From an uncultured virus (IMG/VR IMGVR_UViG_3300041405_000133) (lineage: Duplodnaviria > Heunggongvirae > Uroviricota > Caudoviricetes), in IMG/VR virus record IMGVR_UViG_3300041405_000133, positions 62,001 through 126,000 of that record: a DNA stretch of 64,000 bases; one strand, written 5' to 3'. Below are positions 6,348-62,813 of this stretch, one piece after another (positions within the stretch are counted from its first letter, which is position 1; each line of letters opens with the position of its first letter). Both the position numbers and the translations under genes were made by a program. Below the pieces are notes generated by a model. The model saw nothing but the letters and a program-made list of their open reading frames with translations, ran no database searches and had not been told where the DNA came from.

Positions 6348-7070
6348 ATGCTTTCATCGGTATATAAACGCTCGAAGGCCCGTGTGGATGCTTGTCTCAA
6401 GAAGGCAGGCACCACATTCATCGCGATGGAACCTTTGCGGATTCATATCCCTGAACGGTTTGCTGAACGTGGTCTGGCTGTGATCGAGGATGTCTCGTAC
6501 ATCCTCGGTTGTTTGGCCATTATCACCGAAGACAACTATTACGCTCCATCCACTGTTACGGCTATGTTGAAGACAGAGCCTGACCGTGTGGGTCGTATCG
6601 TGATCGATGACGTCGGGTATATCGAGCTCAGCTACAACAAAGGTTCAAAGGTCATCGCGTCTACGGAACCGGTCGTGGTGGATAACCTACCTCACCGCAT
6701 CTATACCGAGCTTCTAGGTAAAGGTCGTATTCCGTGGTATTACGATTACACCGACATTCCGTTCATCTTCCGCGAATCCCTTAAATACAATGGTGTGCGT
6801 TTAGGCGCGGATCTTGCTATTTGGGAATACATCGCAGCGCAACTGTGCCGTGACCCGGATAACCCGACCAGATACTGGCGGCAGGTTCCGAACGCCAAAG
6901 CTCTGCTGGCAACTAAGTCACCGTACTTTGTGGCTCTTCGTAACGTGAGTATTGGCTCAACCAACATGACGGCCCGTCTGGGCGGCTCTTATTTCGACCC
7001 AGGTATGACCAGTACGTTGGCGAATCCATCCGATCGTAATGAACGGTTCGAGACGGTATTGCGTCGATAA
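6348..7070 (+). CDS. Conserved hypothetical/virion protein (phiKZ gp176-like position)
   Basis: 240 aa with AAGGGG RBS. Syntenic position. Confidence 0.65.
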   Translation: MLSSVYKRSKARVDACLKKAGTTFIAMEPLRIHIPERFAERGLAVIEDVSYILGCLAIITEDNYYAPSTVTAMLKTEPDRVGRIVIDDVGYIELSYNKGSKVIASTEPVVVDNLPHRIYTELLGKGRIPWYYDYTDIPFIFRESLKYNGVRLGADLAIWEYIAAQLCRDPDNPTRYWRQVPNAKALLATKSPYFVALRNVSIGSTNMTARLGGSYFDPGMTSTLANPSDRNERFETVLRR

Positions 7071-7081
7071 GGAATAGAATC

Positions 7082-7888
7082 ATGGGCATGCCTTCCATTC
7101 AATTGCCGAACTCCAGTCAGGTCAGCTCCTACAGTAGCATCGCTTTGGCGAATAGCGGCAAGAAGGGCGTTCTGAAGGATGTAGGTAACGGCTATAAAGA
7201 AATCCTGCTGGGGGCATTCGGTGCCTTCGGTAACGGCGGCTGGCTTTATGACACCGCCTCTGCAATGCGTTATCTGGAGAACGACCAAGAGTTCCTGCGT
7301 ATGATGCAGGCTGGTCGTATCCGTGGCGAGTGGGGTCACCCAGTTCGTCCGCCAGGCATGAGCGACCAAGATTGGTTCGTTCGTATCTGTACGATCGTTG
7401 AAGCCAACATGTGCTGCCACATTCGCCGCGTTCGTCCTTCGTTGGATACCGTGGTTGACGAACGTGGCCGTAAGGTCATCGCCCTGATCGGCGAAGTCAA
7501 GCCTTCTGGTAAGGAAGCCAAGGCATTTGGCGACATGCTGGACAATCCGGATGAAGACGTAAACTTCTCCATCCGTTGCTTTGCGAAGAAGAACTTCGGC
7601 AACATGACCAAACACATGACCAAGATCATCACTTGGGACTTCGTGTTTGATCCGGGCATTGCCCTGACCACAAAGTACAACACTCCGAGCATGGAGTCGA
7701 AGAGCGTGACTCGTCAGCTTGACGAGGCTGAGTTCAACCTCGAGCGTCTGCGCAATGGTTTCGACCACACGCGTCAGAACAACTCCGAAGAGAGCTTCGA
7801 AAGCGTTGCTCCAGCGGTAGAGATCCTCGGTTCTCTCTATGAGAAGACCAAGTCTCAAATCTTCGTCCCTACCTCTCTCGGCTGGTAA
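7082..7888 (+). CDS. Prohead (head maturation) protease, phiKZ gp175-like
   Basis: GEWGHP (His), FSIR (Ser) and TWDFV (Asp) motifs of S-x-E-cleaving prohead proteases. C-terminal SMES/SFES candidate autocleavage sites. Confidence 0.88.
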   Translation: MGMPSIQLPNSSQVSSYSSIALANSGKKGVLKDVGNGYKEILLGAFGAFGNGGWLYDTASAMRYLENDQEFLRMMQAGRIRGEWGHPVRPPGMSDQDWFVRICTIVEANMCCHIRRVRPSLDTVVDERGRKVIALIGEVKPSGKEAKAFGDMLDNPDEDVNFSIRCFAKKNFGNMTKHMTKIITWDFVFDPGIALTTKYNTPSMESKSVTRQLDEAEFNLERLRNGFDHTRQNNSEESFESVAPAVEILGSLYEKTKSQIFVPTSLGW

Positions 7889-32436: not shown

Positions 32437-33276
32437 TCAGTATCGAGGTCTTGCACCGAGAGACAGCTTAAGGATTTTACGCTTAAGCTCTTGGTCCGCA
32501 AGCATCCCGACTTTCTTCCAATCCACGTTGAGGTAGTCCATGTACATTTGGTCAGCATCAGCGTAGCTGTCGATAATCTCCCGGATACGTCCGAGACTTG
32601 CGCCAGCTCGAATCTGACCTTCATCCAGATCAATGATCAGGTTGTTGTAGATGTACGCCTTGACTGCACGGAAGACGAGTTCCGCAAACTCTGAGTAGTA
32701 CATCGGGTCGAGGTTGTTAAAGTTCGCCTCGTGGGACACACGGCACCGTACCGCACCGTCACCGACCAATTGGTTGATGTCGTTGACTAGGATGGTGTTA
32801 ATTCCTACGAGTTGAACGTATGCTGTACCCATTACGGTACTGCCGCTAACGGCCCGCATGATGTCACGACCAACCATGAGCATATCGCCAGCACGACGAT
32901 CGAAACCTGAGTTAGTACTGCTACTCAGGCCTTGAGTCAAACCGTAGATAAGTTCATGGACAGTTGTGATGTTCCGACCACCCAATGCTTCACGGGGGAA
33001 TCGGTACACTACGTTGTAAGCATCGATGAAATCAACTTCCGCAAAACACAACGGAAGGAACATTTCAGTACCAGAGTTCAGGTTGACATCGATTGCGACA
33101 CGAGCCTCAATAACGAGTTCGCGGATACGCTGATCAATAGACAGCCCATTGACGTTATCGAAATAACGCTCTTGGCGTGTTGGGTCGTAACGCTTTGGCA
33201 TGAATGCTTGCTTCAAGATATCCGGTGGAATACCGTTCTTGACACGCATGATCGCCACTGTAACCGGATCTGACAT
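32437..33276 (-). CDS. Conserved chimallivirus core protein (putative virion)
   Basis: GGAGG RBS before ATG 33276. About 279 aa, divergent from phuZ. Confidence 0.7.
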   Translation of the reverse strand: MSDPVTVAIMRVKNGIPPDILKQAFMPKRYDPTRQERYFDNVNGLSIDQRIRELVIEARVAIDVNLNSGTEMFLPLCFAEVDFIDAYNVVYRFPREALGGRNITTVHELIYGLTQGLSSSTNSGFDRRAGDMLMVGRDIMRAVSGSTVMGTAYVQLVGINTILVNDINQLVGDGAVRCRVSHEANFNNLDPMYYSEFAELVFRAVKAYIYNNLIIDLDEGQIRAGASLGRIREIIDSYADADQMYMDYLNVDWKKVGMLADQELKRKILKLSLGARPRY

Positions 33277-33359
33277 AACGAATCCCTCCAATAGGACTCA
33301 AGTGATTTCGCTTGAAGCCTCTTACCATTGTTGCACCAACCATCCATTAGGAGCTGTAC

Positions 33360-34367
33360 ATGTCTGAAGTAATCAACACTGGCCTGATCAACGTTCGTCC
33401 TCGCACTATCCGTTTCTACGCCTGTGGTGGTACTGCAATCAACCAACTGCGAGCATACCGCGATAACCATCCTGGTGAACCGCGTCTGCATGGCGACGAG
33501 AAATACAGCTACATCGATACCAGCTTCGCCAACCTCGATGGCGCGCTGATGTCCGAAACCTTCACCCTGAAAGAAGCCGATGGTTCGGGTTCCGACCGGA
33601 AGAAGAACGCTGCGCGTATCGTGGGGGTACTTCCTGAAATCATGTTGGCTCACCAGCCTGCTGACTTCAACGTCGTTATCTTCTCCCTGTCTGGCGGCAC
33701 TGGCTCCGTGGCCGGCCCGATCATCCTGAAAGAACTGCTGGCCAAAGGTCACAAAGCTGTCGGCGTTACTTCCGCAGCATTCACCTCCGGCAAGAAATCC
33801 TCCAACGCCATCGATACCCTGACTGGCCTGGAGTTGGCTGTTGCGTCCGTCGGCCGTCCGGTTGTTCTGAGCTACACCCCGAACGATCCGAACAAAACCG
33901 ATTCCGACAACAACATCAAACCACTGTTCGTTCTGCAAACCCTGGCCAAACTGGCGAGCGGCAAGAACGGCCATCTGGATTCGTCCGACGTGGCGAACCT
34001 GTTCGACTTCCACACCGTAACCAACTACAAGCCATCGCTGGCTCTGCTGGATGTGTACGCTGGTGAAGAACAGTTGAAGTCTGACGTTACCAGCGCCATC
34101 GGCATTGCCGGTCTGCTGAAAGATCGCACCAGCGTCATGCCGGCTATCAATGCCGCTTATGACACTGTCGGCTACCTGCCTGAAGACAATCGTGAATTCG
34201 CCAACTCCTTCTACTTCGTCGTGTCCATCGAGAAGCTGAACGGCGTTGTCAAAGACATGAACGATCGTAAAGCTCAGGCTGAACTGAAAGAACGCGTCAC
34301 CAACACCGTTTCGACCCTTGCTACCGCTGGCGTTGTGGTAGATGAAGCAACCGGCCTGGTCTTGTAA
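33360..34367 (+). CDS. phuZ: Phage tubulin PhuZ (spindle)
   Basis: Tubulin/FtsZ signatures YACGGTAIN, IDTS, DGSGSDR, SLSGGTGS and D.SD. Acidic/hydrophobic tail. Confidence 0.93.
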   Translation: MSEVINTGLINVRPRTIRFYACGGTAINQLRAYRDNHPGEPRLHGDEKYSYIDTSFANLDGALMSETFTLKEADGSGSDRKKNAARIVGVLPEIMLAHQPADFNVVIFSLSGGTGSVAGPIILKELLAKGHKAVGVTSAAFTSGKKSSNAIDTLTGLELAVASVGRPVVLSYTPNDPNKTDSDNNIKPLFVLQTLAKLASGKNGHLDSSDVANLFDFHTVTNYKPSLALLDVYAGEEQLKSDVTSAIGIAGLLKDRTSVMPAINAAYDTVGYLPEDNREFANSFYFVVSIEKLNGVVKDMNDRKAQAELKERVTNTVSTLATAGVVVDEATGLVL

Positions 34368-34381
34368 GACCTGAGCCGTTA

Positions 34382-34417
34382 ATAAACTGCGGGGCACTTG
34401 GCCCCGCAGTTTATGCC
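34382..34417 (+). terminator. Hairpin-TTTATGCC element
   Basis: ATAAACTGCGGGGC-ACTTG-GCCCCGCAGTTTATGCC. Confidence 0.8.
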
Positions 34418-34441: not shown

Positions 34442-34663
34442 ATGGCTGTAAATCTGAACATGCGTTTTGTCTGTGACCATTGCGGTAACGTAGACGACCT
34501 GCATTACACTCATCAATCTGGCGGTAATGGTTTCGAATGCCATCGTTGCAAGTTTGGTACATGGCACGGCTATTTCAGCGAAGATAAATACGATGAAGTC
34601 CACCACGTCTGCACCAACCGCGTCAATCCATATTTCAATGAAGACGGCTCCCCTAAATTCTGA
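34442..34663 (+). CDS. Small Zn-ribbon protein
   Basis: CDHC...CHRC...WHGYF. GAGG RBS. Confidence 0.7.
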   Translation: MAVNLNMRFVCDHCGNVDDLHYTHQSGGNGFECHRCKFGTWHGYFSEDKYDEVHHVCTNRVNPYFNEDGSPKF

Positions 34664-34834
34664 TAGGGGTCACGAACGCTAGGAGATCCGTAAAACGATC
34701 TCCTAGTGGCGTTCTTTCTTTTTTGTTATCACGGTATTCATTTGTATTCGAAACGGCTTCTATGCAGCTCGTAGAGCCTTGTAGATGTATTTATCTACAA
34801 AACGACCTAATCATGTAGGCTATAGGGGACACGT

Positions 34835-35227
34835 ATGTTTGAGAATCTACGACTGCCGGACAAAATCTTAGATGAGCGAAACTTCACTGTCGTTGATATC
34901 AGTGAACAAGTGGAGTTGCTCAAGCGTCATGGTAATTTCCATCCAGATGTGATGGAAGCATGGATGGCCCGTGGATACGCCAAGAATCATGGTGTCGCCA
35001 CTGTAAGCGCCAGCCTGTTCGAAAGACCTGGACAACAAACCGCGTTCGAAAGAATGCAATTGAGCGTAACGGCGACAGAGATCGGCCTGCGTCCAGTTGA
35101 CTTCCTTCCAGAGCCGGAAGACGATTGGCTAGATGAGTGCGGTGTTTGGTTTTACGTTCGTGGATCGTACTTAGCAATGGGGAATAGCCGTGCTATTGAA
35201 AAATGTTGGCGACGACTGCGTAATTGA
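34835..35227 (+). CDS. Small acidic protein, array member 1
   Basis: AGGGG RBS. FTVVDISE N-terminal strand. Confidence 0.7.
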   Translation: MFENLRLPDKILDERNFTVVDISEQVELLKRHGNFHPDVMEAWMARGYAKNHGVATVSASLFERPGQQTAFERMQLSVTATEIGLRPVDFLPEPEDDWLDECGVWFYVRGSYLAMGNSRAIEKCWRRLRN

Positions 35228-35642
35228 TTTCTCAGAGATCAGCGACAATTTCTTCGGCGAGGCTACAAGGTTCACAAAGGAGCCGACGTCTCGAGATAGA
35301 CGGAATGTCGAACGTGTAGTGGGTGAGATGTTCGATGACTACATGACGAAGAGCATGACTTGGACCAAGGCGTTCCACGACTTCAATGAAAGTTACTTCA
35401 TCAACCGGCTGCCTAAGTGCTGCCGCGATCATCCAAATATCCGCACGGTCATCATCGATGTTTACGATGAGATCTCTGAAGTGTTGGCTGAGGTGATGGC
35501 GTTACCTACATGGTACGACGTATCAATGCGCGTATCAGGAACTGCTATCCATCTGTCAGTGGGAGAAGACCAACGTATAGTCCAGTGGACAAAAGAGCAC
35601 GCCCATGAGTATTCGACTAACTACAACGGCAAGGGATGGTGA
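35190..35642 (+). CDS. Array member 2
   Basis: CVIDFSE. Ends NGKGW. Confidence 0.7.
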   Translation: MLLKNVGDDCVIDFSEISDNFFGEATRFTKEPTSRDRRNVERVVGEMFDDYMTKSMTWTKAFHDFNESYFINRLPKCCRDHPNIRTVIIDVYDEISEVLAEVMALPTWYDVSMRVSGTAIHLSVGEDQRIVQWTKEHAHEYSTNYNGKGW

Positions 35643-36096
35643 TGTAATCGTCCATGCTGTGGACGAATGGTACTCACGGTTCAAAGATACCCTTGACCTT
35701 GATAATACAGAGCTGCGGGGGATGGATACAAAAGTTAGGACGTTGATCGTGAATGTCGTCGACACAATCATCAACCCTACCGAGTCCTCCATTTATCAGC
35801 TAGCGGTCAGAGCAACCAATTCTCGAAAGGCGTACACCACGCTTCTAGAACAGTTGGTTGAGTTTGACCACGAAATGCGTGAGTTGGTTAAGATGTGTCA
35901 CGATCGTAAATGCGACGTGACGGGTGTAACCATCCCACATGACAAACTTATACTTGTCTTCCATATGGAAGATACTCGGAGGCCAGATGAAACTGGATTT
36001 GAAACTTATATCGAATCTTGTCGAAGAAGCGGTGAATACGTCCACCCAGAACTCGACAAGCAACTCAGGCTCTGGAGAAGTATCCGCGGCGCCTAA
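35605..36096 (+). CDS. Array member 3
   Basis: VIVHAVDE. Part of the overlapping operon. Confidence 0.7.
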   Translation: MSIRLTTTARDGDVIVHAVDEWYSRFKDTLDLDNTELRGMDTKVRTLIVNVVDTIINPTESSIYQLAVRATNSRKAYTTLLEQLVEFDHEMRELVKMCHDRKCDVTGVTIPHDKLILVFHMEDTRRPDETGFETYIESCRRSGEYVHPELDKQLRLWRSIRGA

Positions 36097-36526
36097 CTAT
36101 TCGTATAAGTACGTGATCGTTGACGTCGGTGACTTCAACATGACTGACATATCCGAAAGTACGCTGATCGATCCGGGTGCTCTGCTGAAAGCTGTATTGA
36201 AGTACGAGTTCTGGGACGATGACTTCGACTTCAAGCATCTGTCTCAGGACATCCCAGATCCGTCTGAAGGCAACGTATCGCTGGCACTCGACACTTGGTA
36301 CGCCGAGAACGTAGAACGCCTGCATGACACGTTTGAGTTCCTGCGTGATGTTCGCCCGGCTGTCGTTAGCGACTGCTTGATTGTACACGGCCAATGCCTG
36401 ATCGAAATCTGTAAGGCATTGTCTCCTGAGGCCCAACTCGAATTGGACGACCCAGATCTCCACCTCGAGCCAGCCACTGATCTGGACGAAGAAGATCTTG
36501 ACGTTCCGGAAGATGGTGATGAATGA
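36032..36526 (+). CDS. Array member 4 (start uncertain; frame open from 35939)
   Basis: YVIVDVGD. Acidic tail. Confidence 0.65.
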   Translation: MNTSTQNSTSNSGSGEVSAAPNYSYKYVIVDVGDFNMTDISESTLIDPGALLKAVLKYEFWDDDFDFKHLSQDIPDPSEGNVSLALDTWYAENVERLHDTFEFLRDVRPAVVSDCLIVHGQCLIEICKALSPEAQLELDDPDLHLEPATDLDEEDLDVPEDGDE

Positions 36527-36930
36527 AGCTAGGCAAGGGGACAAGACGTACCCTTATCGTGGATATCGACAATGAGTTCCACGAAGCGCTGATACGTCTT
36601 GGTGACCATGTCCCCAACTATGAGCGCAACCAGTTCATCCAGTACACCGCAAGCATTCTGTTAATGTCGTTGTTGATGTGCGATAGAGATGGTGCCGTTG
36701 ATGCATTTGAACGCATCACCTCTCTCGCCCACATCTCTGACATGAAGAAGCATGCGACTATCTGGGGTGAGTTCTTAGCCCTGGCCAACTACTTCCACAA
36801 CCACTACTATCACCATGACGAATTGATCAGAGATCTTGAAGACATGATGCCGAAGCATCCCAAGGAATTCCCTGAGTTGATCTTCGAAGTAGAGGTTGCG
36901 GACAAAGGTGGCTATCTGAAGGTGAGTTAA
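36523..36930 (+). CDS. Array member 5
   Basis: TLIVDIDN. ATGA overlap. Confidence 0.7.
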   Translation: MKLGKGTRRTLIVDIDNEFHEALIRLGDHVPNYERNQFIQYTASILLMSLLMCDRDGAVDAFERITSLAHISDMKKHATIWGEFLALANYFHNHYYHHDELIRDLEDMMPKHPKEFPELIFEVEVADKGGYLKVS

Positions 36931-37368
36931 ATGACTACCGAAAATGATTCAATCAGGATTATTGCTGAGATTGATTCACACGGCAGCCATTACTTATTCA
37001 AGATCGCTGATGACTTGCAGAAGATGCCAGACTTTGAGGGCGAATGCTCTGATTATCTGGCATCGCTGGTTCTCAGCTCGATCATTGATTATTGGTGCTT
37101 AGCGGATATGGACGAACTGTCCTACATCCTAGGCGCTTGCGATGAGTACGACGATCAGGAAATAGGTCGCCGAACTAAGCGCAATATAATGGATCTGTCG
37201 AAAGCCGATCTGGATGACTTCCCAGATTTCTACAACACCAAGTTAACTCTCATCGACATTGCACAGGAACAAGAAAGGAAGGGTTGGAAGAAGTATCGGT
37301 TCACTGAACCAGAAGTTAACCCCAACCGGAAGTTCTTTGTAGTCTGGATGGAAAAGATCTTAGATTAG
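36931..37368 (+). CDS. Array member 6
   Basis: IRIIAEID. Abuts the previous stop. Confidence 0.7.
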   Translation: MTTENDSIRIIAEIDSHGSHYLFKIADDLQKMPDFEGECSDYLASLVLSSIIDYWCLADMDELSYILGACDEYDDQEIGRRTKRNIMDLSKADLDDFPDFYNTKLTLIDIAQEQERKGWKKYRFTEPEVNPNRKFFVVWMEKILD

Positions 37369-37377
37369 GGAGGTCAG

Positions 37378-37695
37378 ATGTTGGAAGCGGAACAGTTTGT
37401 TATTGAGATTACACATACCCACGGCGTATCTGACTCCGCCGTGGGTTTTATGCTGTCTAATTGGGTATTGGACTCAGCTTCTCGTAAAGAATGGTTGAGT
37501 GCTGACACGCTCATTACCCTTACCCATGACTACAATCTCAGTATTAAAACCATTGAGAAGATGTCAGGTGACGTACTCGACGCACTGGAGGAGTGCGGGT
37601 TATATGCGCAACTGATGACCGACGATCGCAGACTCAGCTCAGTATCATGCAGGGTTAAGCGCGATGTGGCGTTAATTGATCTGGAGTGGACATGA
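37378..37695 (+). CDS. Array member 7
   Basis: GGAGG RBS. FVIEIT. Confidence 0.7.
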   Translation: MLEAEQFVIEITHTHGVSDSAVGFMLSNWVLDSASRKEWLSADTLITLTHDYNLSIKTIEKMSGDVLDALEECGLYAQLMTDDRRLSSVSCRVKRDVALIDLEWT

Positions 37696-38063
37696 AAGCA
37701 AATACGTTACCAGCAATCGCTACAAAGAGCTTGATTGCCGTTCATAACGACTCCCTCAACAGTTTCATTAACACCGAGGATCTGTCGGAACACATCAAGG
37801 TTCTGTCTGGAATCGCGTTTGATTTCGTGCAGGCTATGCCAATCTGTCAATATGTTTATAACTGGCCGCCTGCTGAGATCATTCTTGATCGCTGCACCGG
37901 GAAGTCAAAGCTTTCCACGCTGTACAACGCTTTGTTCGATGAACTGTCTGAGAACGGATACCCTGTATCTGTCCTTATGACCATGCAGGTTGTCCAACAT
38001 GTCCCAAAACGATATACCGTGCTTTCCGTCCCACTTGCGGCGAGACTCGGGAGGCTCCACTGA
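37692..38063 (+). CDS. Array member 8
   Basis: GGAG RBS and ATGA overlap. SLIAVHND. Confidence 0.65.
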   Translation: MKANTLPAIATKSLIAVHNDSLNSFINTEDLSEHIKVLSGIAFDFVQAMPICQYVYNWPPAEIILDRCTGKSKLSTLYNALFDELSENGYPVSVLMTMQVVQHVPKRYTVLSVPLAARLGRLH

Positions 38064-38430
38064 TAAGGAGTTCATCGTTGTAGATATATCCGATACGGTA
38101 CGGGCATTCTGCAATGAAGTTGACCGAGAAGTGGAAAGTCTTTCGTACGACATCGATGCCATCATCAGGCAGTATTCAGCTTATCGCCATGTAGGACGGT
38201 ATGATGAGATCGTCACGGGTCTGTCAAACAAGTTCCTAGAACACGGTTGTGTAAAAGTTGACGACGACGGACCAATAATAGCAAGAGCTGCCCTTGGTAC
38301 GCTTTACCGTGGAATCACCGAACATATCCGTGACTTAGGGTACATGATCGGAGCAGTCCACGATGTGAAGCTGAAGTTAAATAGTATCAACCGGCAGATA
38401 AGATGTAATGCAATCATGATGGTTATCTAA
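37999..38430 (+). CDS. Array member 9
   Basis: FIVVDISD, near-identical to the member 1 motif. Confidence 0.7.
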   Translation: MSQNDIPCFPSHLRRDSGGSTDKEFIVVDISDTVRAFCNEVDREVESLSYDIDAIIRQYSAYRHVGRYDEIVTGLSNKFLEHGCVKVDDDGPIIARAALGTLYRGITEHIRDLGYMIGAVHDVKLKLNSINRQIRCNAIMMVI

Positions 38431-38448
38431 CCAGTACGGAGCTGCTTC

Positions 38449-38814
38449 ATGAAAAACCACTGTATCGTAGGCTACAGTCCGGGATTCTACGATTACCTGC
38501 AATCAGTGGGGTATCGTGAAGTCCCGGAACAGGTGTCCGCTGATGAACCAGACTCCCCACTGGCTTCAATTGACACGCAGTTCGTAAACTGGGAACGCAT
38601 TGAGTTTCTGGATTACCTGACCAATTGCATGATCGGTATCGAATCTATTGATCCGGATTATCTGGCTACTGTCGAAAGTCTCTATGAGGCTATTGATGAC
38701 GATGATTTGAGACAACTGGTCGAAGAAGGTTCGATCGAAGATTTGATATTTAATGACCGAGGCTATTACTTGGCTCGGCTGGAGAGTGTAAATGCCCCTC
38801 AACGAATCTTTTAA
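38449..38814 (+). CDS. Array member 10
   Basis: GGAG RBS. HCIVGYS, acidic. Confidence 0.7.
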   Translation: MKNHCIVGYSPGFYDYLQSVGYREVPEQVSADEPDSPLASIDTQFVNWERIEFLDYLTNCMIGIESIDPDYLATVESLYEAIDDDDLRQLVEEGSIEDLIFNDRGYYLARLESVNAPQRIF

Positions 38815-39187
38815 AGGGAAGACGCTCAGTTTCGAGCTGAGCTCTGGTATCCGGTACACGAACTACAAGCTGCTGGCCCTGCTCGATGTGGGGACCGTTG
38901 TAGCAGTGGGGTTCCAAGCGGCTGGTGAACACCATCAGAACTACCCGTACATGCCATCCGATTCTCCAGACGACTTCACGGCGTATGCGTATGCCAAGTT
39001 CGTCGATCCGGAGAATAAGATCCTGTATGTTGGCGTACCGTGGATCAAGGAAGGTTCCATCACCGTCCTCGACAACGTCAACTACAACTGCCTTCTCCTG
39101 AACCCAACCTCCGCCGAGCTGGAAACATTCCGCTCGATCCTGGTGGCCTCTGGGTTCGAAGGACGATTCAAGCTCACCGTAGCCTGA
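38792..39187 (+). CDS. Conserved small beta-rich protein upstream of DNA polymerase (phiKZ gp49-like)
   Basis: 131 aa. HHQNYPYMP...VGVPWIKEGSI. Syntenic position. Confidence 0.65.
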   Translation: MPLNESFKGKTLSFELSSGIRYTNYKLLALLDVGTVVAVGFQAAGEHHQNYPYMPSDSPDDFTAYAYAKFVDPENKILYVGVPWIKEGSITVLDNVNYNCLLLNPTSAELETFRSILVASGFEGRFKLTVA

Positions 39188-39192
39188 TCACG

Positions 39193-39242
39193 CACTCCTG
39201 CCAGCCGTAAAAGGTTGGCAGGAGTGTAGCGTCTTTTTTTTT
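39193..39242 (+). terminator. Rho-independent terminator
   Basis: CACTCCTGCCAGCC/GGTTGGCAGGAGTG stem plus T tract. Confidence 0.8.
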
Positions 39243-39302
39243 GTTTTGTTGAAAGATACAAACCGTACTAACAATACGTAGAGTACCTCAGAGGTTTGAT
39301 TG

Positions 39303-41432
39303 ATGGCTAACGATAACCCGTTCCTCTTACCAATAGAGGAATACAAACGTGACATCGATGTCAAGAAAGGCTATATCCAACAAGTAGCCAAGTATCTTTC
39401 ACTTCAGCTCAAACTCCCTTACGAGAACACGCTGAAGTACGTCCTTAAGAAAGTAGCTAAGGGCGGCATGTTTGCATTCAAAGATCCTGCAATGCAGCAG
39501 TTGATCAAGAAAGCACGCGGTCACCGGGTTGAGGATGAAACTACCTTCCTCGGTTACATCGAAGAGATTCGTGAATCTGGTCGTATCGTTTCCCCATCGC
39601 TGGTGGTTTACGAGCGTCCAGAAGTAGAACGTTCCGTTACAGCTGAATGGCTGGACGACAACATCGCGGCTCGTAAGAAGTCGAAGAAAGCGATGTTTGA
39701 ATTGAAACAGATCGGTGAACTGATGAAGTCTGCGCTCGCGGACTATGACCAGAACGCCCGTAAGATCCGTATCAACTCCGTATCCGGTATGCGTGGCTTT
39801 GAAGGTAACCCAATCTTCTTGGCAACCGGTCACTCCAGTCTGACATCCATGTGCCGGGCAGCAGCGGGGTACGGTAACGCCACTGTTGAAAGATTCATGG
39901 CGGGGTCGAAGCATTACCATACGCCAGAGATAGCCAAAGCCAACTTGACGGCCATCACGACTATCGAACAGATGAGTCGGGTTCAGTTGGTGATTGACGA
40001 ATACAACCTCGTGTATCCAACTGTGGATGACGTGGTAGCCATGGTTGAGCGTTCTACCAGCCTGTACTGGGATATCCCTCACGAGATGGCTTTGATCCGT
40101 CAGATGGCAGAAGGGATGACTCCACTTGAGCGTGCCACCGTTTGCTACTCGGGTGACATGTACCACTTGGCTAAGTTCAACCCTGAAGTTGTTAAGAACC
40201 TGATGGGCGAAATGATTGCCATCAATATCGAAGACATGGAAGACGTTGATACTGACGCCATCCTGATGACTGTCGATACCACGGCCATCGCTTACATCAA
40301 CGCCCTGTGTGCAAACATCCTGAAAGGTAGTACGCACAAGCTGGTTAAAGAGAACAACCCGGCAGGTTGGCAGGTTATCGGTCGTACAGCACAACGCTTT
40401 AAAGAAGCCTCTGCGAAGTACGCAACCCTGATCACTAACCTATTTGCGCCTAAGCATCTTCCGCCGACTGTAGCCGCTCTCAAGGGCATTCAGCGCCGTG
40501 TATGTCTGGCAGCAGATACCGACTCCTCCATCTTCAGTACCGAATACTGGGTTGAGTGGTATACCGGCAGCATGAAGCGTGGGGAAGTAGAGGACCGTAT
40601 CTGGTATCTCGCCACCTACATGTCTTGCCAGTGCATTGCGCACAGTCTGGCAATGTTGTCGGCAAACGTCGGTGTGGAACGTTCGCAACTCTTCCGTCTG
40701 GCAATGAAGAATGAGTACGCCTTCCCGGTGTTTGCTCTGACCAACCTTGCTAAGCACTACTTCTCCTTCATGTCCATGCGGGAAGGTAACGTTTACGAAG
40801 AGAACGAGCTGGAGATCAAGGGTGTAGAGCTGCGCGGTTCTACTGCACCTAAGCACATCTTGAAAGCGGCTGAGGAGATGATGGAGAACATCGCTACTCA
40901 CGTCAATGAAGGTCGGAAGATGAATGCGGGTAAACTCCTGCGGTTCGTTGCCGATCACGAGATTGAAACGATCCAGTCCATTAAGCGTGGGGAATACAAA
41001 TACCTGCGTTCCGCTCAGATCAAGCCGGACAGTAACAAGATGCTTCACCACGAACTGTGGCAAGAAGTGTTTGCTCCTAAGTACGGTGAATCGGTTAATC
41101 CTCCGTATCCATGCGTTAAGATCACTTCTGAGCTGTCTAACAAGACGAAGACTCAGGAATGGTTGGCGGGTATGGAAGATCAGGAGCTGGCCAAGCGAAT
41201 GGCTGCGTGGATGGTCAAGTGGAACCGTAAAGAGATCACTACCTTCTATCTACCAACCATGGTGATCAAGAACGGTGGTCTTCCTATCGAACTACAGGAA
41301 GCTGCAAACGTCCGGAAGTTGGCCTATCAGATCAACTCAGGCTTCTACCGGATCTTGGAGTCTACTGGTCTTCATCTGGTGGATCGGAATAACTACCGTC
41401 TAATCTACGACTTCTTGGGACTTACTGCATGA
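39303..41432 (+). CDS. Family B DNA polymerase, polymerase-domain subunit (phiKZ gp50-like split polymerase)
   Basis: Q...K...NSVSG (motif B), ADTDS (motif C), KHY and EIKGVELR. Confidence 0.88.
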   Translation: MANDNPFLLPIEEYKRDIDVKKGYIQQVAKYLSLQLKLPYENTLKYVLKKVAKGGMFAFKDPAMQQLIKKARGHRVEDETTFLGYIEEIRESGRIVSPSLVVYERPEVERSVTAEWLDDNIAARKKSKKAMFELKQIGELMKSALADYDQNARKIRINSVSGMRGFEGNPIFLATGHSSLTSMCRAAAGYGNATVERFMAGSKHYHTPEIAKANLTAITTIEQMSRVQLVIDEYNLVYPTVDDVVAMVERSTSLYWDIPHEMALIRQMAEGMTPLERATVCYSGDMYHLAKFNPEVVKNLMGEMIAINIEDMEDVDTDAILMTVDTTAIAYINALCANILKGSTHKLVKENNPAGWQVIGRTAQRFKEASAKYATLITNLFAPKHLPPTVAALKGIQRRVCLAADTDSSIFSTEYWVEWYTGSMKRGEVEDRIWYLATYMSCQCIAHSLAMLSANVGVERSQLFRLAMKNEYAFPVFALTNLAKHYFSFMSMREGNVYEENELEIKGVELRGSTAPKHILKAAEEMMENIATHVNEGRKMNAGKLLRFVADHEIETIQSIKRGEYKYLRSAQIKPDSNKMLHHELWQEVFAPKYGESVNPPYPCVKITSELSNKTKTQEWLAGMEDQELAKRMAAWMVKWNRKEITTFYLPTMVIKNGGLPIELQEAANVRKLAYQINSGFYRILESTGLHLVDRNNYRLIYDFLGLTA

Positions 41433-42182: not shown

Positions 42183-42221
42183 GGCATACAGAGCGGGGCA
42201 GTGCCCCGCTCTGTTTTATGC
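42183..42221. terminator. Bidirectional terminator
   Basis: GGCATACAGAGCGGGGC-AGT-GCCCCGCTCTG-TTTTATGC. Confidence 0.8.
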
Positions 42222-43550: not shown

Positions 43551-43777
43551 CCAGTAGATAAGGAAAGTCGAAGTGATCTAAGTAAAAAGTCACACAGCAA
43601 CAGAATCTTAAGACCCGTAGCGTAAAGCCGGTTTAGTGCAACCGGTTCAAGCCCGTGCTATTCACGACGGTGGGTATTGCCGGGAATCCCTGATAGCGAT
43701 AAGGGTAATAGTACCGTAATTGCCAGTTAGGCACCATCGCAATAAATGTGTACACAAAATCTTTAGGAGTAGCACCA

Positions 43778-45796
43778 GTGAGCAAAGAAAACGGTAACGA
43801 CGGCTTCGAAATGAAAGATGACGCCCCAGCCCCACGCGCCGAAGCTCCAGCATCTGAGCGCCGTGAAGAACGTCGCGAAGAGCCACGTCGTGAAGAACGC
43901 AATACCCGCCGCGATCGCGATGAGCGTGAAGAAGGCGAAGAACGTGCGTTCACGATTGCGGACATCGGCCGTACCCTGAACGTCCGTCCATCCAGCGGTG
44001 GCCTGAGCGATGCTGCTCTGTCCGCACTCATGGCTGCGTTCGAGAAGAACAAGGCGTTCGACAAACCGAACCTGCCTGATGCAATCAAGCGCGACCGCTT
44101 CAAAGTGATTCCGCTGGACGGCTCCCTGGCCAAGTCCTCGCTGAACTCGCTGCTGGTAACTTTGCCAATCGTCATCGGCGCTGGCAAGGCAACTCTGGTT
44201 TACGTTCTGACCATCGAACCGGCCGGTGGCCACGGTACTCGCAGTCAGGTCGATCGCGGCACCACTTACGATGCGATCGTTCTGCCTGAAGACCAACTGG
44301 CTACCAAGCCGTACAAACGCGCCATCGAAGATCAGGTCTCCGGCCTGAACAAAGATGCCAAGGTTGTGGTGATCGGTTCGCAGGTTCTGCTGTCGTCGGT
44401 TGTAGCGAAGCTGAACAAAGAAGAAAACAGCGCCGTCGTCGATCGTATCTTCGACAACGCCCTGGACGCACTGTGCGGCTACCGCGAAAACCTGGTCGAC
44501 AAGGCCGGTGGTTCCCGCAACAGCGCCTTCCGTATCAGCCCGAAAATGATCGGCCGCACTGGCCGTCTGGAAACCACCTGGAACTACAGCGGTCAACCGG
44601 GCGAAGATAGCTCGGGTCAGCCGATCCGTTCCGACTGCACCGGTAACCTGTTCTACAGCGAAGCCAGCAACGAAGACGACAACCAGTACGATCGTACCCC
44701 AATGGGCGAAATCCGTGCCGGTATCGACCTCTTCCTGGCCGACAACCGTGAACAATCCAGCGGTCCATCCTTCTCGCGCCGTCGCAAGTCGCAAGAAGAA
44801 GGCGAACCGTTCATCCAGGCCGTTCTGAACATCACCTCGATCGCTCCGGCGCCGAACTTCCCGTTCTCTCTGGAACTGGCACTGCTGCTGTTGGCTCAGG
44901 CCAACCTGCAATCGAACGACTACCGCTGGGCTTCCCAGCTGCGTCCTCGCACTGCAATCAGCAATCCAGATGGCACCGGCGTGATGAAGCCTACCAGCAA
45001 CATCAACTGCCTGCACCTGCTGAACCCGAACCGCGACTTCGCCAAGATCTTCGACGACGTGTCTCCGAACATGGACGACAACGATCTGAGTGATTACCTC
45101 GCGTTCACGGTCTTCCCGAAACTGGCCATCGGCATGATGATCCCAAGCTCGGGCGAGAAGTCCTCGGTTCTGTCGATCTTCGAAAGCATCGCGACCACTC
45201 GCGATACCGACGTTGCTCGTCGCCACACCAAGACGCTGTTCGAAGCTGCCGACGTTCTGTCGGGCAACCGCTTCAGCCGCGCCTACAAGGACCTGGCTGG
45301 TTCCACCGACGTAGCTCCAGTGCGTTCGATGGGTACTCGTCAGCTGATCGGCACCTGGGTTGATAACCAAGGCAACGTGCGCGACCTGCGCGAATGGAAC
45401 GTTCAGTCTCTCCTCACCGAAGTTGGCGAGAAGAACATCGATCTGGTTACTGACTTCCAGTACACCTACGAGAACGATCGCAACACCGTGGACTTCTGCC
45501 TGGCAGAACGTCTGGGCTACCTCCAGAAGGTTGTTCCGGGCATCCGCGTTACCACCACCGCTCCGCTGCTGGGCTTCGAGCCTGACTTCCTCGAGGCGCT
45601 GTCGCGCTCCCTGGACGCAGCTGACATGTCGAGCTACATGACTGCCGAAGGTGGTCTGAACACTCGTCGTCACGTTGGTGGCAGCAACTGGTCGCAGCTG
45701 GCAACTTCCGACATCGGCATCAGCCGTCGTCGTGGTTCCGACCGCACCACCGCTGATCGTGGCCGTGGTGGTCTGTTCGACACCATCGACTACTAA
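43778..45796 (+). CDS. chmA: Chimallin, major nuclear shell protein (phiKZ gp54-like)
   Basis: About 672 aa from GTG 43778 (AGGAG RBS). Extreme codon bias and G.PIRSD motif. Immediately upstream of nvRNAP beta' as in all chimalliviruses. Confidence 0.88.
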   Translation: MSKENGNDGFEMKDDAPAPRAEAPASERREERREEPRREERNTRRDRDEREEGEERAFTIADIGRTLNVRPSSGGLSDAALSALMAAFEKNKAFDKPNLPDAIKRDRFKVIPLDGSLAKSSLNSLLVTLPIVIGAGKATLVYVLTIEPAGGHGTRSQVDRGTTYDAIVLPEDQLATKPYKRAIEDQVSGLNKDAKVVVIGSQVLLSSVVAKLNKEENSAVVDRIFDNALDALCGYRENLVDKAGGSRNSAFRISPKMIGRTGRLETTWNYSGQPGEDSSGQPIRSDCTGNLFYSEASNEDDNQYDRTPMGEIRAGIDLFLADNREQSSGPSFSRRRKSQEEGEPFIQAVLNITSIAPAPNFPFSLELALLLLAQANLQSNDYRWASQLRPRTAISNPDGTGVMKPTSNINCLHLLNPNRDFAKIFDDVSPNMDDNDLSDYLAFTVFPKLAIGMMIPSSGEKSSVLSIFESIATTRDTDVARRHTKTLFEAADVLSGNRFSRAYKDLAGSTDVAPVRSMGTRQLIGTWVDNQGNVRDLREWNVQSLLTEVGEKNIDLVTDFQYTYENDRNTVDFCLAERLGYLQKVVPGIRVTTTAPLLGFEPDFLEALSRSLDAADMSSYMTAEGGLNTRRHVGGSNWSQLATSDIGISRRRGSDRTTADRGRGGLFDTIDY

Positions 45797-45818
45797 GTCG
45801 GCAGATGCGGTAAACTGA

Positions 45819-45859
45819 CACGGGAGGAGGGGCAACCCTCCTCCTGTTTCTTTTTTCTT
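45819..45859 (+). terminator. Rho-independent terminator
   Basis: GGAGGAGGG-GCAA-CCCTCCTCC plus T tract. Confidence 0.8.
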
Positions 45860-55204: not shown

Positions 55205-55244
55205 AAAGTTCAATCCCCTAGAGTATTAAGCACAGGAGTAATTC

Positions 55245-56837
55245 ATGGAACTTGTTAAACTTATCTTCGTGGAAACTGAAGGCAGCGACACTCCAGTCAT
55301 TCGTCCTTACGAAACCACGCTGAAGAAAGACGACCTCGATCTCTTCGCCAAGGCTACCGATGACGGCTCGAACCTGAGCACCATTCGTCTGGCCAAGGTA
55401 GTTGCGCCACTCCTCGGTCCATCGAACCGTCGTCAACACAAGTCCCACATCAGCAATGGTTGGGATACCACTCGGATCATGTTCGGGATGGTTGTTAAGG
55501 TGATGAACCGTGACAACGCCAGCACCTACGAATATATCGTGGGTTATACCGATCACAGCGAACACGCCCGTCGTGGCGATAACGCGAAGTTCGATGCTGG
55601 CATGAAGATGTACTTCAACAACATCACGCGGGTCCACATGCAGGAATCCCGTCACCGCGATAGCAATATCTGGGTGCCGAAGATCCAAGCGCATGACCAG
55701 ATCCTGCTTCGCTCCAGCCTGACTGGTTCTGATCGTGGCACTACCCGTGGCGGCGATCGTCCAGTTACTCTGCGCCCTACCGACTTGTTCAAACGTGGTG
55801 GTGCAGATGCGGCATTCGGTTCGTTCATGCGTGATAACGACAGCAATGTCAACAACACCGTTGGTTCGTTCAGCTCGGCAATCCGTGCATCGAACGTTGT
55901 CAACAATAGCCAGACCGCTTACGCGGCCCGTAACCTGAATGCGTGGATGCAGGCGAGCAACTCGCCTAACGATGCGTACGTCGGTGACGGTAATGATGAA
56001 GACACCATCCAGGCAACTTCTGATCGGTTGGCAGAGAACTCTCTGGAACTCGATCCGTATCTGGAGCGTATCAAGCGCGACACCAACATTCTCCGTGAAG
56101 GTTGCATTACTTTCGGCGAACTGATGGACATGAACGAAGACTTCGATGAAGATCGTCAGTTGATGTTCGTTCCGTTGGACAAACGTAAGCGCGGTGGTTT
56201 CATCAACAACTCCGCTTGGGGTGAAGATACCAACGAGGCGATTGCAGCGACCATCATCGCAAACTCCCTGCCTGGCATTCTGATCAACTCGATGTATTCG
56301 TCGGTGTCTGGTCTGGTGCTGAACAGTCGTGCCCGCTTCGGCGAGTACAAAGTGGTTTGCTCTGAGCCAACTCCGTTTGCTCCAGGCATGTCGGTTAAGG
56401 CGAACTGGCCGTACTTCGAAAGTCAGATCGAACACGTTCTGATGGAAGAAGTTGGTTGCGGTGGTGCGTTTGAGTTCGAAGCGTACATCGACGCGAACAT
56501 CGACCAGTTCATCAAGATCCGTATCCGGATGGACGGCGGTGAAGAAGCATCGTTCAACTTCCCAGCGTATGCGTCCAGCCTTCTGGCGCCTACTCAGGAT
56601 AAAGACTTCAAGTCGCTCGATCGGATGTCGAAAGGCGTTATCGATCTGGCCTCTGGTCTGTCGAACATGCGGATGTCGCGCTCTGGCGTTGGGGCTCGTG
56701 AAGACGGCCTGAACACTGGCAGTGAAAGTCGCATCAATCTGGCTCCAAGCAGTAAAGAGTCGCGTCCTCGGGATAACGATTACAGAGCCGCTCCAGCAGC
56801 AGCATCTGGCGAACGTAAAGGTGGTAAGGGCTGGTAA
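55245..56837 (+). CDS. picA: Nuclear-shell protein import factor PicA/Imp1 (phiKZ gp69-like)
   Basis: 530 aa. RPYET, I.NGWDT.R..F, YIVGYTDH and LRPTDLF. Follows the gp68-like gene. Confidence 0.75.
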   Translation: MELVKLIFVETEGSDTPVIRPYETTLKKDDLDLFAKATDDGSNLSTIRLAKVVAPLLGPSNRRQHKSHISNGWDTTRIMFGMVVKVMNRDNASTYEYIVGYTDHSEHARRGDNAKFDAGMKMYFNNITRVHMQESRHRDSNIWVPKIQAHDQILLRSSLTGSDRGTTRGGDRPVTLRPTDLFKRGGADAAFGSFMRDNDSNVNNTVGSFSSAIRASNVVNNSQTAYAARNLNAWMQASNSPNDAYVGDGNDEDTIQATSDRLAENSLELDPYLERIKRDTNILREGCITFGELMDMNEDFDEDRQLMFVPLDKRKRGGFINNSAWGEDTNEAIAATIIANSLPGILINSMYSSVSGLVLNSRARFGEYKVVCSEPTPFAPGMSVKANWPYFESQIEHVLMEEVGCGGAFEFEAYIDANIDQFIKIRIRMDGGEEASFNFPAYASSLLAPTQDKDFKSLDRMSKGVIDLASGLSNMRMSRSGVGAREDGLNTGSESRINLAPSSKESRPRDNDYRAAPAAASGERKGGKGW

Positions 56838-56880
56838 AGCCCTTTTCACAAACCCCTATTAATGACCACGGGAATTAGTG

Positions 56881-60833: not shown

Positions 60834-62813
60834 ATGGCAAGACATCGTCGGTTCAGAGCCCGTGACCTGTTCGATACGATGGTACATCTTTGGCCTTGCG
60901 CTGAGTACGAGGAATTCATCCTCGAGTTCGACGACGGCGACACGATGACCACAACAACAATCAATACCCAGATCTCCCGCAAGCTCTGGTTGCCACACGA
61001 GGTATACGACAAACTCGGTATCTTCAAGCGCCACCACATCGGTAATGGTTCGCTGTCCAATGAACGCATCCATGAAGTACAGGGTGCGATCACTGAAGAC
61101 ATGTACAACACGTACGGTGAGTTGGGCTTTAACCGTGAAGAGTTGTGGCGACACAACTATTACGGCACCAACCGTCTGTACAACGAATCCATCGTCGAAT
61201 ATGCGGCGTATGTTCGCGGCAGTAACTCGTTTGACTTCAGTCATCTGTACGAGTATCCGCCAATCGCTAAGATCCGTACCGAATGCCAGCCTAACAAGCT
61301 GTCTATCGAGAAGGCTTACGATGCGGCGAAGTTGGTTCTGGAACGTGATCCTGCGATTGCTCGTAACGTGATCATCTCCGACCTTCGGGCTGGTCTGTTG
61401 AAGATGGAGCAGTTGCTTCAGATCCTCATCGTGCGGGGCTACAACACCGACATCGATGGGCACGTATATAGCAAACCTATCATGGGCAACTACTTCGCAG
61501 GTATTCACGATCCTGCGGAAGCCATGATGGAATCCACACTGGCCGCTAAGGCTATCATCTTTACCGGAGCGCCGCTCGAACAAACCGAGTATGCGAACCG
61601 GAAGATGCAGTTCACTACCCAGCAGGTTGACTTGCTGGTAATGGCTGACTGTGGATCGACTGAGTACGGGGAGATTGAGATCACCAAGTTCAGGTTCAAA
61701 GCCATGGACGGTCTCAACTATCTCGATCCTGATACCAACCGGTTGAAACCATTGCGGATGACTGACACTCACCTGATTGGTGAGACACGCAAGTTCCGTC
61801 TGGCATTCAACTGTAAGTACCGGCATCACAACAACGTCTGCAAGATGTGCTACGGCTTGCTGGCGTATAACGTGCCGTTCGGTGCGAACATCGGTCACAT
61901 CGCATCTACAATGACCCAATCGGAAGTATCTCAGGCAGTGTTGAAGGTTAAGCACTCTGAGGCGTCTGCTTCTTCTGATCCGATCATCATTCAAGATGAA
62001 GAGCGGCCGTACATCCTCCCAGCATCTGAAGGTCACCAGATTCGTCTGAACCCAAGACTGGGCGTTAAGGGTATCCCGCTGATGCTTCGCGGTGGTTACT
62101 CTCAGGGTGTTCACAACGCATCGAAGCTTCCTGTACTGAAACGTACCGATCTGCGCGCTGGCGTTAACATCGCCAAGTTCAGTCAGTTCCGTGAAGTCAG
62201 CTTTGAGCTGCCTAGCGAGAACAAGCAGTCGAACCGGGTACACGTCACGGTATCCCGTGGCGCGCGCATGTCGAACCTGACTCGTGAGTTCCTGGACTAC
62301 TTCCTGAAGAAAGGCTTCCGAATCGATGATGATGGTTATTATCGGATTGATCTGAAGGATTGGAACTTCGACCTGCCAGCCTTTGAAATGCCAAACCGCC
62401 ACGGTAGCATGAAGGACCACGCAGCAGTAGTGGAAGTAATGATCCGCTCTACTCGTGACTCCAACCAGCGCCACTTGGGTCGGTTGAAGCAATTGAAGGA
62501 CTATGCAAACCCAACTGAAGCAATGTTGGATACGCATGAGCTGATCGCACTGAAGGTTCCTGTTCACTTCACCCACGTCGCTATTGTGTTGCTGTCTATG
62601 ATGGTATCCAGTACGAAGTCAGGCGATTACAGGATTCCACCTCTGGGCGAACCTACTCGGTTTGCTAAATACGATCACGTAATCAGTGGTCGCTCGATGG
62701 GCGCGTTCTTCGCCTATCAGGGTGGTCGTAACCTGCTCGATACACTTGAGCAGTACATGATCACTGAACGGGAACAACATCTGCTCGATCCGTTGCTGAT
62801 GCCCGGCTGGTAA
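60834..62813 (+). CDS. Non-virion RNAP beta'-like C-terminal subunit (phiKZ gp74-like)
   Basis: RGY.TDIDG, EYANRK, DCGS, C...VC..CYG, NIGH and SQAVLKVKH motifs. Confidence 0.9.
   Translation: MARHRRFRARDLFDTMVHLWPCAEYEEFILEFDDGDTMTTTTINTQISRKLWLPHEVYDKLGIFKRHHIGNGSLSNERIHEVQGAITEDMYNTYGELGFNREELWRHNYYGTNRLYNESIVEYAAYVRGSNSFDFSHLYEYPPIAKIRTECQPNKLSIEKAYDAAKLVLERDPAIARNVIISDLRAGLLKMEQLLQILIVRGYNTDIDGHVYSKPIMGNYFAGIHDPAEAMMESTLAAKAIIFTGAPLEQTEYANRKMQFTTQQVDLLVMADCGSTEYGEIEITKFRFKAMDGLNYLDPDTNRLKPLRMTDTHLIGETRKFRLAFNCKYRHHNNVCKMCYGLLAYNVPFGANIGHIASTMTQSEVSQAVLKVKHSEASASSDPIIIQDEERPYILPASEGHQIRLNPRLGVKGIPLMLRGGYSQGVHNASKLPVLKRTDLRAGVNIAKFSQFREVSFELPSENKQSNRVHVTVSRGARMSNLTREFLDYFLKKGFRIDDDGYYRIDLKDWNFDLPAFEMPNRHGSMKDHAAVVEVMIRSTRDSNQRHLGRLKQLKDYANPTEAMLDTHELIALKVPVHFTHVAIVLLSMMVSSTKSGDYRIPPLGEPTRFAKYDHVISGRSMGAFFAYQGGRNLLDTLEQYMITEREQHLLDPLLMPGW

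Follow-up and report, generated by a model that had tools for sequence, protein, structure and literature searches.

An old block of ten small proteins with a common layout in a nucleus-forming jumbo phage, and its possible kinship with phiKZ import factors

Background

How nucleus-forming jumbo phages choose the proteins that enter the phage nucleus is an open question, for which the known cargo-specific factors are Imp2, Imp4 and Imp5. The question is raised by a run of ten small genes, here A1 to A10, at positions 34835-38814 of a 64,000-nucleotide stretch of DNA from an uncultured caudoviricete (positions 62,001 to 126,000 of IMG/VR record IMGVR_UViG_3300041405_000133; this whole stretch is called the window). 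The window is part of a divergent nucleus-forming jumbo phage (chimallivirus), which encodes PhuZ, chimallin and a homologue of Imp1/PicA. A reading of the same DNA made without database searches (the sequence-only reading) had described the ten genes as an expanded paralogue family with a conserved scaffold and as candidate adaptors for import. We propose that the ten proteins would be old, separately conserved paralogues with one small alpha/beta fold, that their block would be the local form of the phiKZ gp43-gp48 block, and that at least some members, A9 first, may be partner-specific co-factors that pass chosen proteins on to the route by which Imp1/PicA brings them into the phage nucleus. 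For this statement as a whole, covering structure, evolution and import role, we would put the probability at roughly 0.4.

Results and discussion

Conservation of the ten genes

The ten genes lie on one strand and are listed below with the number of loci in which a family member was found; dN/dS denotes the ratio of nonsynonymous to synonymous substitution rates.

34835..35227, + strand: A1, 130 residues; 14 loci; dN/dS 0.09
35190..35642, + strand: A2, 150 residues; 43 loci; homologous to phiKZ gp43 over an N-terminal stretch of ~157 residues
35605..36096, + strand: A3, 163 residues, the fastest-changing member; 14 loci; 61% identity to L004; dN/dS 0.41
35987..36526, + strand: A4, 179 residues, with a predicted folded core at 38-145, a disordered N-terminus and a long acidic tail; 36 loci, the pPa_SNUABM_DT01 clade included
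36523..36930, + strand: A5, 135 residues; 15 loci
36931..37368, + strand: A6, 145 residues; 12 loci
37378..37695, + strand: A7, 105 residues; 16 loci; GGGAGG upstream of the start
37692..38063, + strand: A8, 123 residues; 13 loci; alternative start GTG at 37686
37999..38430, + strand: A9, 143 residues; 41 loci; alternative start TTG at 37990
38449..38814, + strand: A10, 121 residues; 18 loci

The coordinates bear out the earlier description of overlapping or abutting, mostly acidic open reading frames (ORFs), nine of the ten having isoelectric points of 4.1-5.7 and A8, at 6.9, being the exception; the size range of 105-165 residues given there has to be widened to 105-179 on account of A4. The mechanically called ORF of A4 begins at 35939, and its start is most likely the ATG at 35987, judging by the GGAGG placed 5 nucleotides upstream, which would give a 110-nucleotide overlap with A3. 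A Shine-Dalgarno-like purine run precedes most starts of A1-A10.

Related contigs were labelled L001 (pPa_SNUABM_DT01), L002 (the window's own copy), L004, L007, L008 (phiKZ) and so on. Each member has one syntenic orthologue in them, with the gene order kept: those of L004 are 61-98% identical to the window's proteins (98% for the divergent family B DNA polymerase, PolB, encoded directly downstream), and those of L007 are 32-42% identical (PolB, 75%), the L007 copy of A6 being detected by profile only. Among the 14 loci that cover the block in full, 11 have all ten families. Measured against L004, dN/dS is 0.03-0.15 in nine members, 0.41 in A3 and 0.05 in PolB. Because each member has a single syntenic orthologue and dN/dS is low, we conclude that A1-A10 are true genes under purifying selection and not chance ORFs.

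Some complete loci lack particular members: L016 and L039 have lost A6 and A8, and L022 has lost A3. The absence of A6 and A8 marks a sub-clade comprising L016, L019 and L039, and together with the contig L022 this gives a block length of 8 to 10 within the clade. Divergence from L004 is likewise very uneven, with A3 at 61% identity and a dN/dS of 0.41, and with a synonymous divergence (dS) of 1.5 in A1 and of 0.26 in PolB; because A1 and A3 depart in this way from PolB, the sequences suggest that parts of the block have been exchanged in mosaic fashion or have come under weaker constraint.

A layout common to the ten proteins

AlphaFold2 was applied to A4 and A9, the two members with the deepest alignments, which have no detectable mutual similarity. 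The A4 model (28 alignment rows) has a predicted local distance difference test score (pLDDT) of 74, with most of its core above 90 (75-95 by 10-residue block), and consists of a strand at 38-46, helices at 52-59, 63-76, 80-87 and 97-122, and strands at 126-133 and 136-144. The A9 model (31 rows; pLDDT 85) has a strand at 24-29, helices at 31-44, 52-61, 68-81 and 88-112, and strands at 118-128 and 133-142. The order of elements, namely a strand, four helices and a hairpin, is identical in the two models, and in the shared fold the C-terminal hairpin would be expected to pair with the first strand.

When the two models were searched with Foldseek against BFVD, 24 of the 50 targets in their top-50 lists were common to both; for these, the template modelling (TM) scores, with the target as the basis of normalisation, are 0.41-0.60. 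Foldseek probabilities in BFVD reach 1.0. Among the rows with a named organism, 22 of 26 for A4 and 21 of 25 for A9 come from what we take, by the organism names, to be phiKZ-like jumbo phages, and several proteins of one phage are often found among the matches. Among solved structures none resembles the fold modelled for A4 and A9, which is accordingly worth solving: A9 searched with Foldseek against the PDB gave a best probability of 0.38 and a best E-value of 0.2, and profile searches of PDB sequences returned nothing below E 0.09.

In the A4 family W104 is the only invariant residue, and in the A9 family Y50 is the only one; no enzyme-like set of catalytic residues is conserved in either. 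Because almost no residue is invariant and no catalytic set is present, the ten proteins are most likely binding modules, whose variable surfaces would set partner specificity.

We then examined the whole set of 45 pairs of families at the level of profiles, using reversed profiles and permutations as controls because the flanking genes provided too few credible control families (about three, the others being shadow ORFs). The forward profiles score higher than the null made from reversed ones (means 14.4 versus 11.7, Wilcoxon p 0.001), and 14 of the 45 pairs score above the reversed maximum of 14.9. For collinearity, strand 1 and the hairpin served as landmarks. In A4 and A9 they were placed by the models, and in the other eight by the motifs of the sequence-only reading, which the crude predictor described below likewise calls as strands; a pair was counted as in register if its best local alignment lay within 0.1 of equal relative position. 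By this measure 26 of the 45 pairs are in register, compared with 8.6 +/- 2.6 in permutations, and the reversed profiles are at chance level with 7 of 45. The layout of a strand, helices and a hairpin is also returned for all ten proteins by a crude secondary-structure predictor based on propensity tables, which reached a three-state accuracy (Q3) of 0.64 and 0.75 against the two AlphaFold2 models and is the sole secondary-structure basis for the eight other members.

Individual families give further indications. An independent alignment of A9 24-111 with A4 41-113, using the own-clade families (hhalign E 0.0077, 72 columns), brings strand 1 and helices 1-4 of the A9 model into register with those of the A4 model. 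The A8 hidden Markov model (HMM) has a weak match to a protein of the A9 family, owed to a common TLY-x10-GY at the junction of helix 4 and strand 2, and A5 and A6 give a weak full-length profile alignment (E 0.002, 125 columns). A 7-residue pattern in the N-terminal strand, picked post hoc, occurs 6 times in the 1,252 residues of the array and 4 times in the 18,670 residues of the rest of the window.

Because the A4 and A9 models agree, their Foldseek lists overlap and 26 of the 45 pairs are in register against the reversed control, we conclude that the shared layout of the ten is real and above chance, if least clear for A10. The N-terminal strand, helical middle and C-terminal hairpin that had been read from the letters alone are thereby borne out.

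Age and orthology of the block

When HMM searches were iterated across the ORFs of 81 loci, the members fell into ten distinct families, none of which shared an ORF with another. Seven of them (A1, A3, A5, A6, A7, A8 and A10) are confined in these searches to the window's own clade, at 12-18 loci each, and the HMMs of A4 (36 loci) and A9 (41 loci) extend to the pPa_SNUABM_DT01 clade. Annotation offers little help with any of them: no member reaches a curated cut-off in Pfam-A, PHROGs gave no convincing match (best E 0.0018 on a 52-residue stretch), the feature matches of A1 in the ESM Atlas are uninformative, being unnamed clusters at 0.91-0.92, and the A9 family, which forms 55 clusters among 1.84 billion representatives, contains only members named 'hypothetical protein' or not named at all.

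Deeper relationships were sought by comparing 43 families of the block, drawn from every clade, all against all with hhalign (903 pairs). This matched A1 with the PA10_00134 family of pPa_SNUABM_DT01 (E 3.3e-6, 106 columns), A2 with the PA10_00135 family (E 1e-4, 130 columns), A9 with the PA10_00139 family (E 4.5e-6, 84 columns) and, weakly, A10 with the PA10_00140 family (E 0.0025, 97 columns, full length and at the identical position). The pPa_SNUABM_DT01 genes PA10_00134-PA10_00140 resemble the window's block in keeping the order and in lying between a Zn-ribbon gene and the SH3DP gene, with profile counterparts of A1, A2, A4, A9 and A10, all annotated as 'hypothetical protein'; they differ in that there are about seven genes against ten in the window, and PolB is just 43% identical. 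Since each member forms its own old orthologous line, with A1, A2, A4, A9 and A10 reaching the pPa_SNUABM_DT01 clade, the block is, on this phyletic evidence, old and collinear and not a recent tandem expansion specific to the lineage. The earlier picture of an expanded paralogue family therefore has to be divided, its conserved scaffold and low identity standing and its expansion falling away.

The comparison reaches phiKZ at one further point. An HMM seeded from phiKZ gp43 retrieves the window's A2 at E 9.7e-36, and the separately built families F3 and F10 for A2 and gp43 match each other at E 3e-8 over 131 columns; judged by these profile matches, A2 is homologous to an N-terminal stretch of ~157 residues in gp43. 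Like A2, the members of the gp43 family (uncharacterised, 305-357 residues) sit near the start of the block, and A2 differs in being without their C-terminal ~200 residues. In the C-terminus of gp43 (L008 12342-13415) a 23-column stretch matches A5 residues 13-37 at E 9e-4, and the rest of its C-terminal half has no match to any block family. A reading of gp43 as A2 joined to another domain of the same type was dropped, the C-terminal half having given one short match, to A5.

The A4-like ORF of pPa_SNUABM_DT01 (L001 6312-6875) is unannotated, the record having instead an overlapping coding sequence in another frame (6568-7113, PA10_00138). That reading frame is also a conserved family (F5), and of the two overlapping ORFs one could be a shadow.

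We regard the structural and evolutionary part of our proposal, a conserved block with a shared fold, as quite probable.

Likeness to the phiKZ import factors

Three genes of the window are needed for the comparison with phiKZ.

38792..39187, + strand: SH3DP gene, the last of the unit, with a fold unlike those of A1-A10 and equivalent to phiKZ gp49 (PF20287, E 3.8e-18; 73 loci)
39303..41432, + strand: PolB, divergent family B DNA polymerase (PF20286, E 1.2e-214)
55245..56837, + strand: Imp1/PicA homologue (matches PHIKZ069 by tblastn at E 3e-11, with 25% identity across 55% of the query)

The last of these agrees with the earlier placing of PicA at 55245. In the accessible text of the import preprint, imp2 is orf47, imp4 is orf48 and imp5 is orf287 (10.1101/2024.03.27.586873), so that gp48 is Imp4 and not, as the sequence-only reading had it, Imp5. 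The same text states that Imp2 is required for import of Nlp1 and itself enters via Imp1, that its homologue in PhiPA3 is gp044, and that Imp2, Imp4 and Imp5 are apparently conserved only in Pseudomonas phiKZ-like phages (10.1101/2024.03.27.586873); the three are termed cargo-specific adaptors in two sources (10.64898/2026.09.21.753271, 10.1101/2024.03.27.586873), and according to a third neither imp2 nor imp4 took up disruptive transposon insertions (PMC12676376). A fold family linking Imp2 and Imp4 with each other, with their neighbours or with other clades is not described in the accessible literature that names both, the import study as it appeared in a journal and the bioRxiv supplements aside.

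The order here is A9, A10, SH3DP and PolB, and that of phiKZ is gp47, gp48, gp49 (SH3DP) and gp50 (PolB); Noxifer gp041, gp042 and gp043 are likewise genes of the gp47, gp48 and SH3DP families. A9 thus holds the position of gp47 (Imp2), two genes upstream of SH3DP, and A10 that of gp48 (Imp4). The sequence-only reading had pointed to the phiKZ genes upstream of gp49/gp50, and this link is strengthened by the fold searches, in which Imp2 orthologues rank high for both models. Four BFVD targets, assigned to the gp47 family by organism and by length relative to HMM-identified locus ORFs and not by sequence, come from Noxifer (167 residues), Psa21 (183 residues), SL2 (178 residues) and PhiPA3 (gp044, 170 residues), and stand respectively at ranks 1, 2, 16 and 21 in the A9 list and at ranks 5, 27, 22 and 15 in the A4 list, with Foldseek E-values of 1.9e-3 to 3e-2 and probabilities of 0.35-0.98. 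A 201phi2-1 protein matching the gp46 family in length is also among the targets, as are two further Noxifer proteins with the lengths of gp038 and gp039 from the corresponding block.

The phiKZ proteins themselves point the same way. The crude predictor gives the layout of a strand, helices and a hairpin for gp45, gp46, gp47 and gp48, and the profiles of these four are in register with those of A1-A10 in 16 of 40 pairs, compared with 8.3 +/- 2.5 expected (P 0.003). Imp2 (gp47) resembles A9 in being small and non-enzymatic, with a disordered N-terminus followed, according to the same predictor, by a strand, helices and a C-terminal hairpin; it differs in lacking sequence or profile similarity to any of the ten families and in that, in the accessible text, an import role is shown for phiKZ and PhiPA3 only. 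Imp4 (gp48) resembles A10 in standing directly before SH3DP and in the layout from the crude predictor, and is without a profile match to it. A resemblance of the N-terminal strand motif of gp47 to those of A9 and A1 was not counted, the motif being unconserved across the gp47 family.

In light of position and fold likeness, A9 and possibly A10 may be the counterparts of Imp2 and Imp4, within a block that would correspond to phiKZ gp43-gp48 and in which A2 would represent the N-terminal domain of gp43. The import-adaptor role that the analogy with phiKZ extends to members of the block is plausible, with the odds leaning against it. A complex prediction for the Imp1 homologue (7 alignment rows) with A9 (30 rows) scored 0.00, which speaks neither for nor against it. 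It would be a larger and unlikely step to suppose that all chimalliviruses have, between phuZ and the polymerase operon, an ancient collinear block with one unsolved fold, in which Imp2 and Imp4 are the sole characterised members and the block as a whole is the set of adaptors that determines which proteins Imp1/PicA admits to the phage nucleus. Factors that sequence searches place in Pseudomonas phages only would in that case have fold-level counterparts in every clade.

Should the block be the fold-level equivalent of Imp2, Imp4 and Imp5, it would single out proteins of distant clades, ten here and about seven in the cultivable pPa_SNUABM_DT01, as candidates whose part in cargo selection can be tested, and would account for their having been missed by sequence searches. 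Should the import link fail, there would still be a conserved and presumably co-transcribed family of uncharacterised small proteins beside replication genes.

Alternative explanations

Several results weigh against the proposal that these proteins share one fold and serve import. The fold evidence consists of models for two of the ten members, compared by element order and not by superposition, and neither A4 nor A9 has a BFVD match at E <= 0.001 (the best being 1.2e-3 and 1.9e-3). The all-against-all matching among the ten that had been suggested as a check came out negative, none of the 45 pairs being significant by sequence or profile (best hhalign E 0.0018, probabilities at most 8.8%). 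Of the 9 pairs that involve A10, 5 are discordant in the collinearity test and two more lie beyond the 0.1 cut, and the test itself reveals a common layout and not common descent, a simple layout being one that could recur by convergence. As for the import factors, the comparison with phiKZ gp43-48 that had been recommended yielded the homology of A2 with gp43 and the collinearity of gp45-48, with no profile match for gp47 or gp48: the gp47 HMM finds 19 loci, none in the window's clade, with hhalign E-values of at least 0.05 against every one of the ten families, and the gp48 HMM finds nothing in that clade, its best hhalign E-values against the ten families being 0.03-0.04 and that against A10 0.25. 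Against the Imp2 orthologues the models reach TM scores of just 0.23-0.40, and the root-mean-square deviations are large. Furthermore, the recurrence of several fold matches in one phage means that one fold need not imply one function, and the evidence here bears on genes and models, not on localisation or import.

In the main rival, the fold family is the same and the job different, the ten proteins being non-enzymatic accessory parts of replication that reside in the nucleus as cargo of the import route and not as its adaptors. The block would share its unit with SH3DP, whose domain is named for association with phage DNA polymerase (PF20287), PolB lies directly downstream, A4 has a long acidic tail, and Imp2 is itself imported, according to the text of the preprint at hand (10.1101/2024.03.27.586873); moreover, a fixed order and a near-constant gene set fit a machine of fixed parts better than a changeable repertoire. 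However, no member matches a replication-factor family in Pfam, PHROGs or the PDB, by sequence or by fold in the last, and the positional counterparts gp47 and gp48 came, on the accessible account, from import selections (10.1101/2024.03.27.586873). We consider this explanation somewhat unlikely as it stands. In the import proposal, co-transcription with SH3DP would tie the members to the replication machinery.

The absence of a Pfam or PHROG family and of any cross-family HMM match, the low hhalign probabilities, the Foldseek E-values, all above 0.001, and the dependence of eight members on the crude predictor would also suit ten unrelated orphans with assorted early or host-takeover functions, having come to a simple common layout by convergence. 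Such an origin is improbable when 26 of the 45 pairs are in register against 8.6 expected with the reversed control at chance, when the A4-A9 profile alignment agrees with the elements of the models and A8 and A9 have a motif in common, and when 24 of 50 fold matches are common to A4 and A9, nearly all from one virus group. Finally, that the ten are subunits of one hetero-oligomer, joined by strand pairing at exposed sheet edges and coupled in translation through their overlaps, would agree with the overlapping or abutting frames in a single unit, the three-stranded sheet with free edges in the A4 and A9 models and the near-constant gene set, and is very improbable given sub-clades that lose A6 and A8, or A3, while keeping the others, and members that diverge unevenly.

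Transcription unit and genomic context

The remaining features bracket the block or place the window among its relatives.

33360-34367, + strand: PhuZ-type tubulin, with Pfam matches slightly below the cut-offs
34442-34663: Zn-ribbon-like protein of 73 residues with four Cys/His, between PhuZ and the ten-gene block
34677..34722, + strand: terminator-like hairpin (34677-34708; 12-bp stem, GTAAAA in the loop) followed by a T-run, ending the upstream PhuZ/Zn-ribbon unit
34780..34818, + strand: conserved motif consisting of GTATnTAnnTAC, a spacer and CTAATCATGTAG, 20-55 nucleotides upstream of A1
39192..39243, + strand: terminator-like hairpin (39192-39227; 15-bp stem, loop GTAAAA) followed by a T-run
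43748-45796: chimallin (PF25677, E 6e-10)

A1-A10 and SH3DP are enclosed by the two hairpin/T-run elements, directly upstream of PolB, and a hairpin with a T-run is found at the corresponding place upstream of A1 in most relatives. On this arrangement the eleven genes would form one transcription unit between intrinsic-terminator-like hairpins. The conserved motif ahead of A1 has 11 invariant columns in all nine aligned relatives, despite diverged flanking intergenic DNA, and a 12-mer from it recurs in the rest of the window no more often than chance would allow. The motif could act as a phage promoter or belong to the 5' leader. The two bracketing hairpins have in common the loop GTAAAA and a GCGT...T-run tail, and a third strong hairpin of the window lies at 42188-42214.

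By PolB, the nearest named phage is pPa_SNUABM_DT01, at 43% identity. The PhuZ of the window is 34% identical to a pPa_SNUABM_DT01 protein bearing a PhuZ note, and phiKZ gp39 falls inside its iterated profile. A near-identity DNA search of the phage collection with the window gave no matches; contigs of the same virus or of near-identical ones are present in IMG/VR. The sequencing runs in which the sequence occurs are of DNA from rhizosphere, root and soil metagenomes, with no RNA run among those listed.

The Zn-ribbon-like protein is found at 38 loci in several clades, its Pfam zinc-ribbon matches being sub-threshold. Long ORFs of 394-690 residues lie antisense to PhuZ (33213-34397, - strand), to the Imp1 homologue (55218-56849, - strand) and to chimallin (43763-45835, - strand), and are most probably shadow ORFs of the coding strand.

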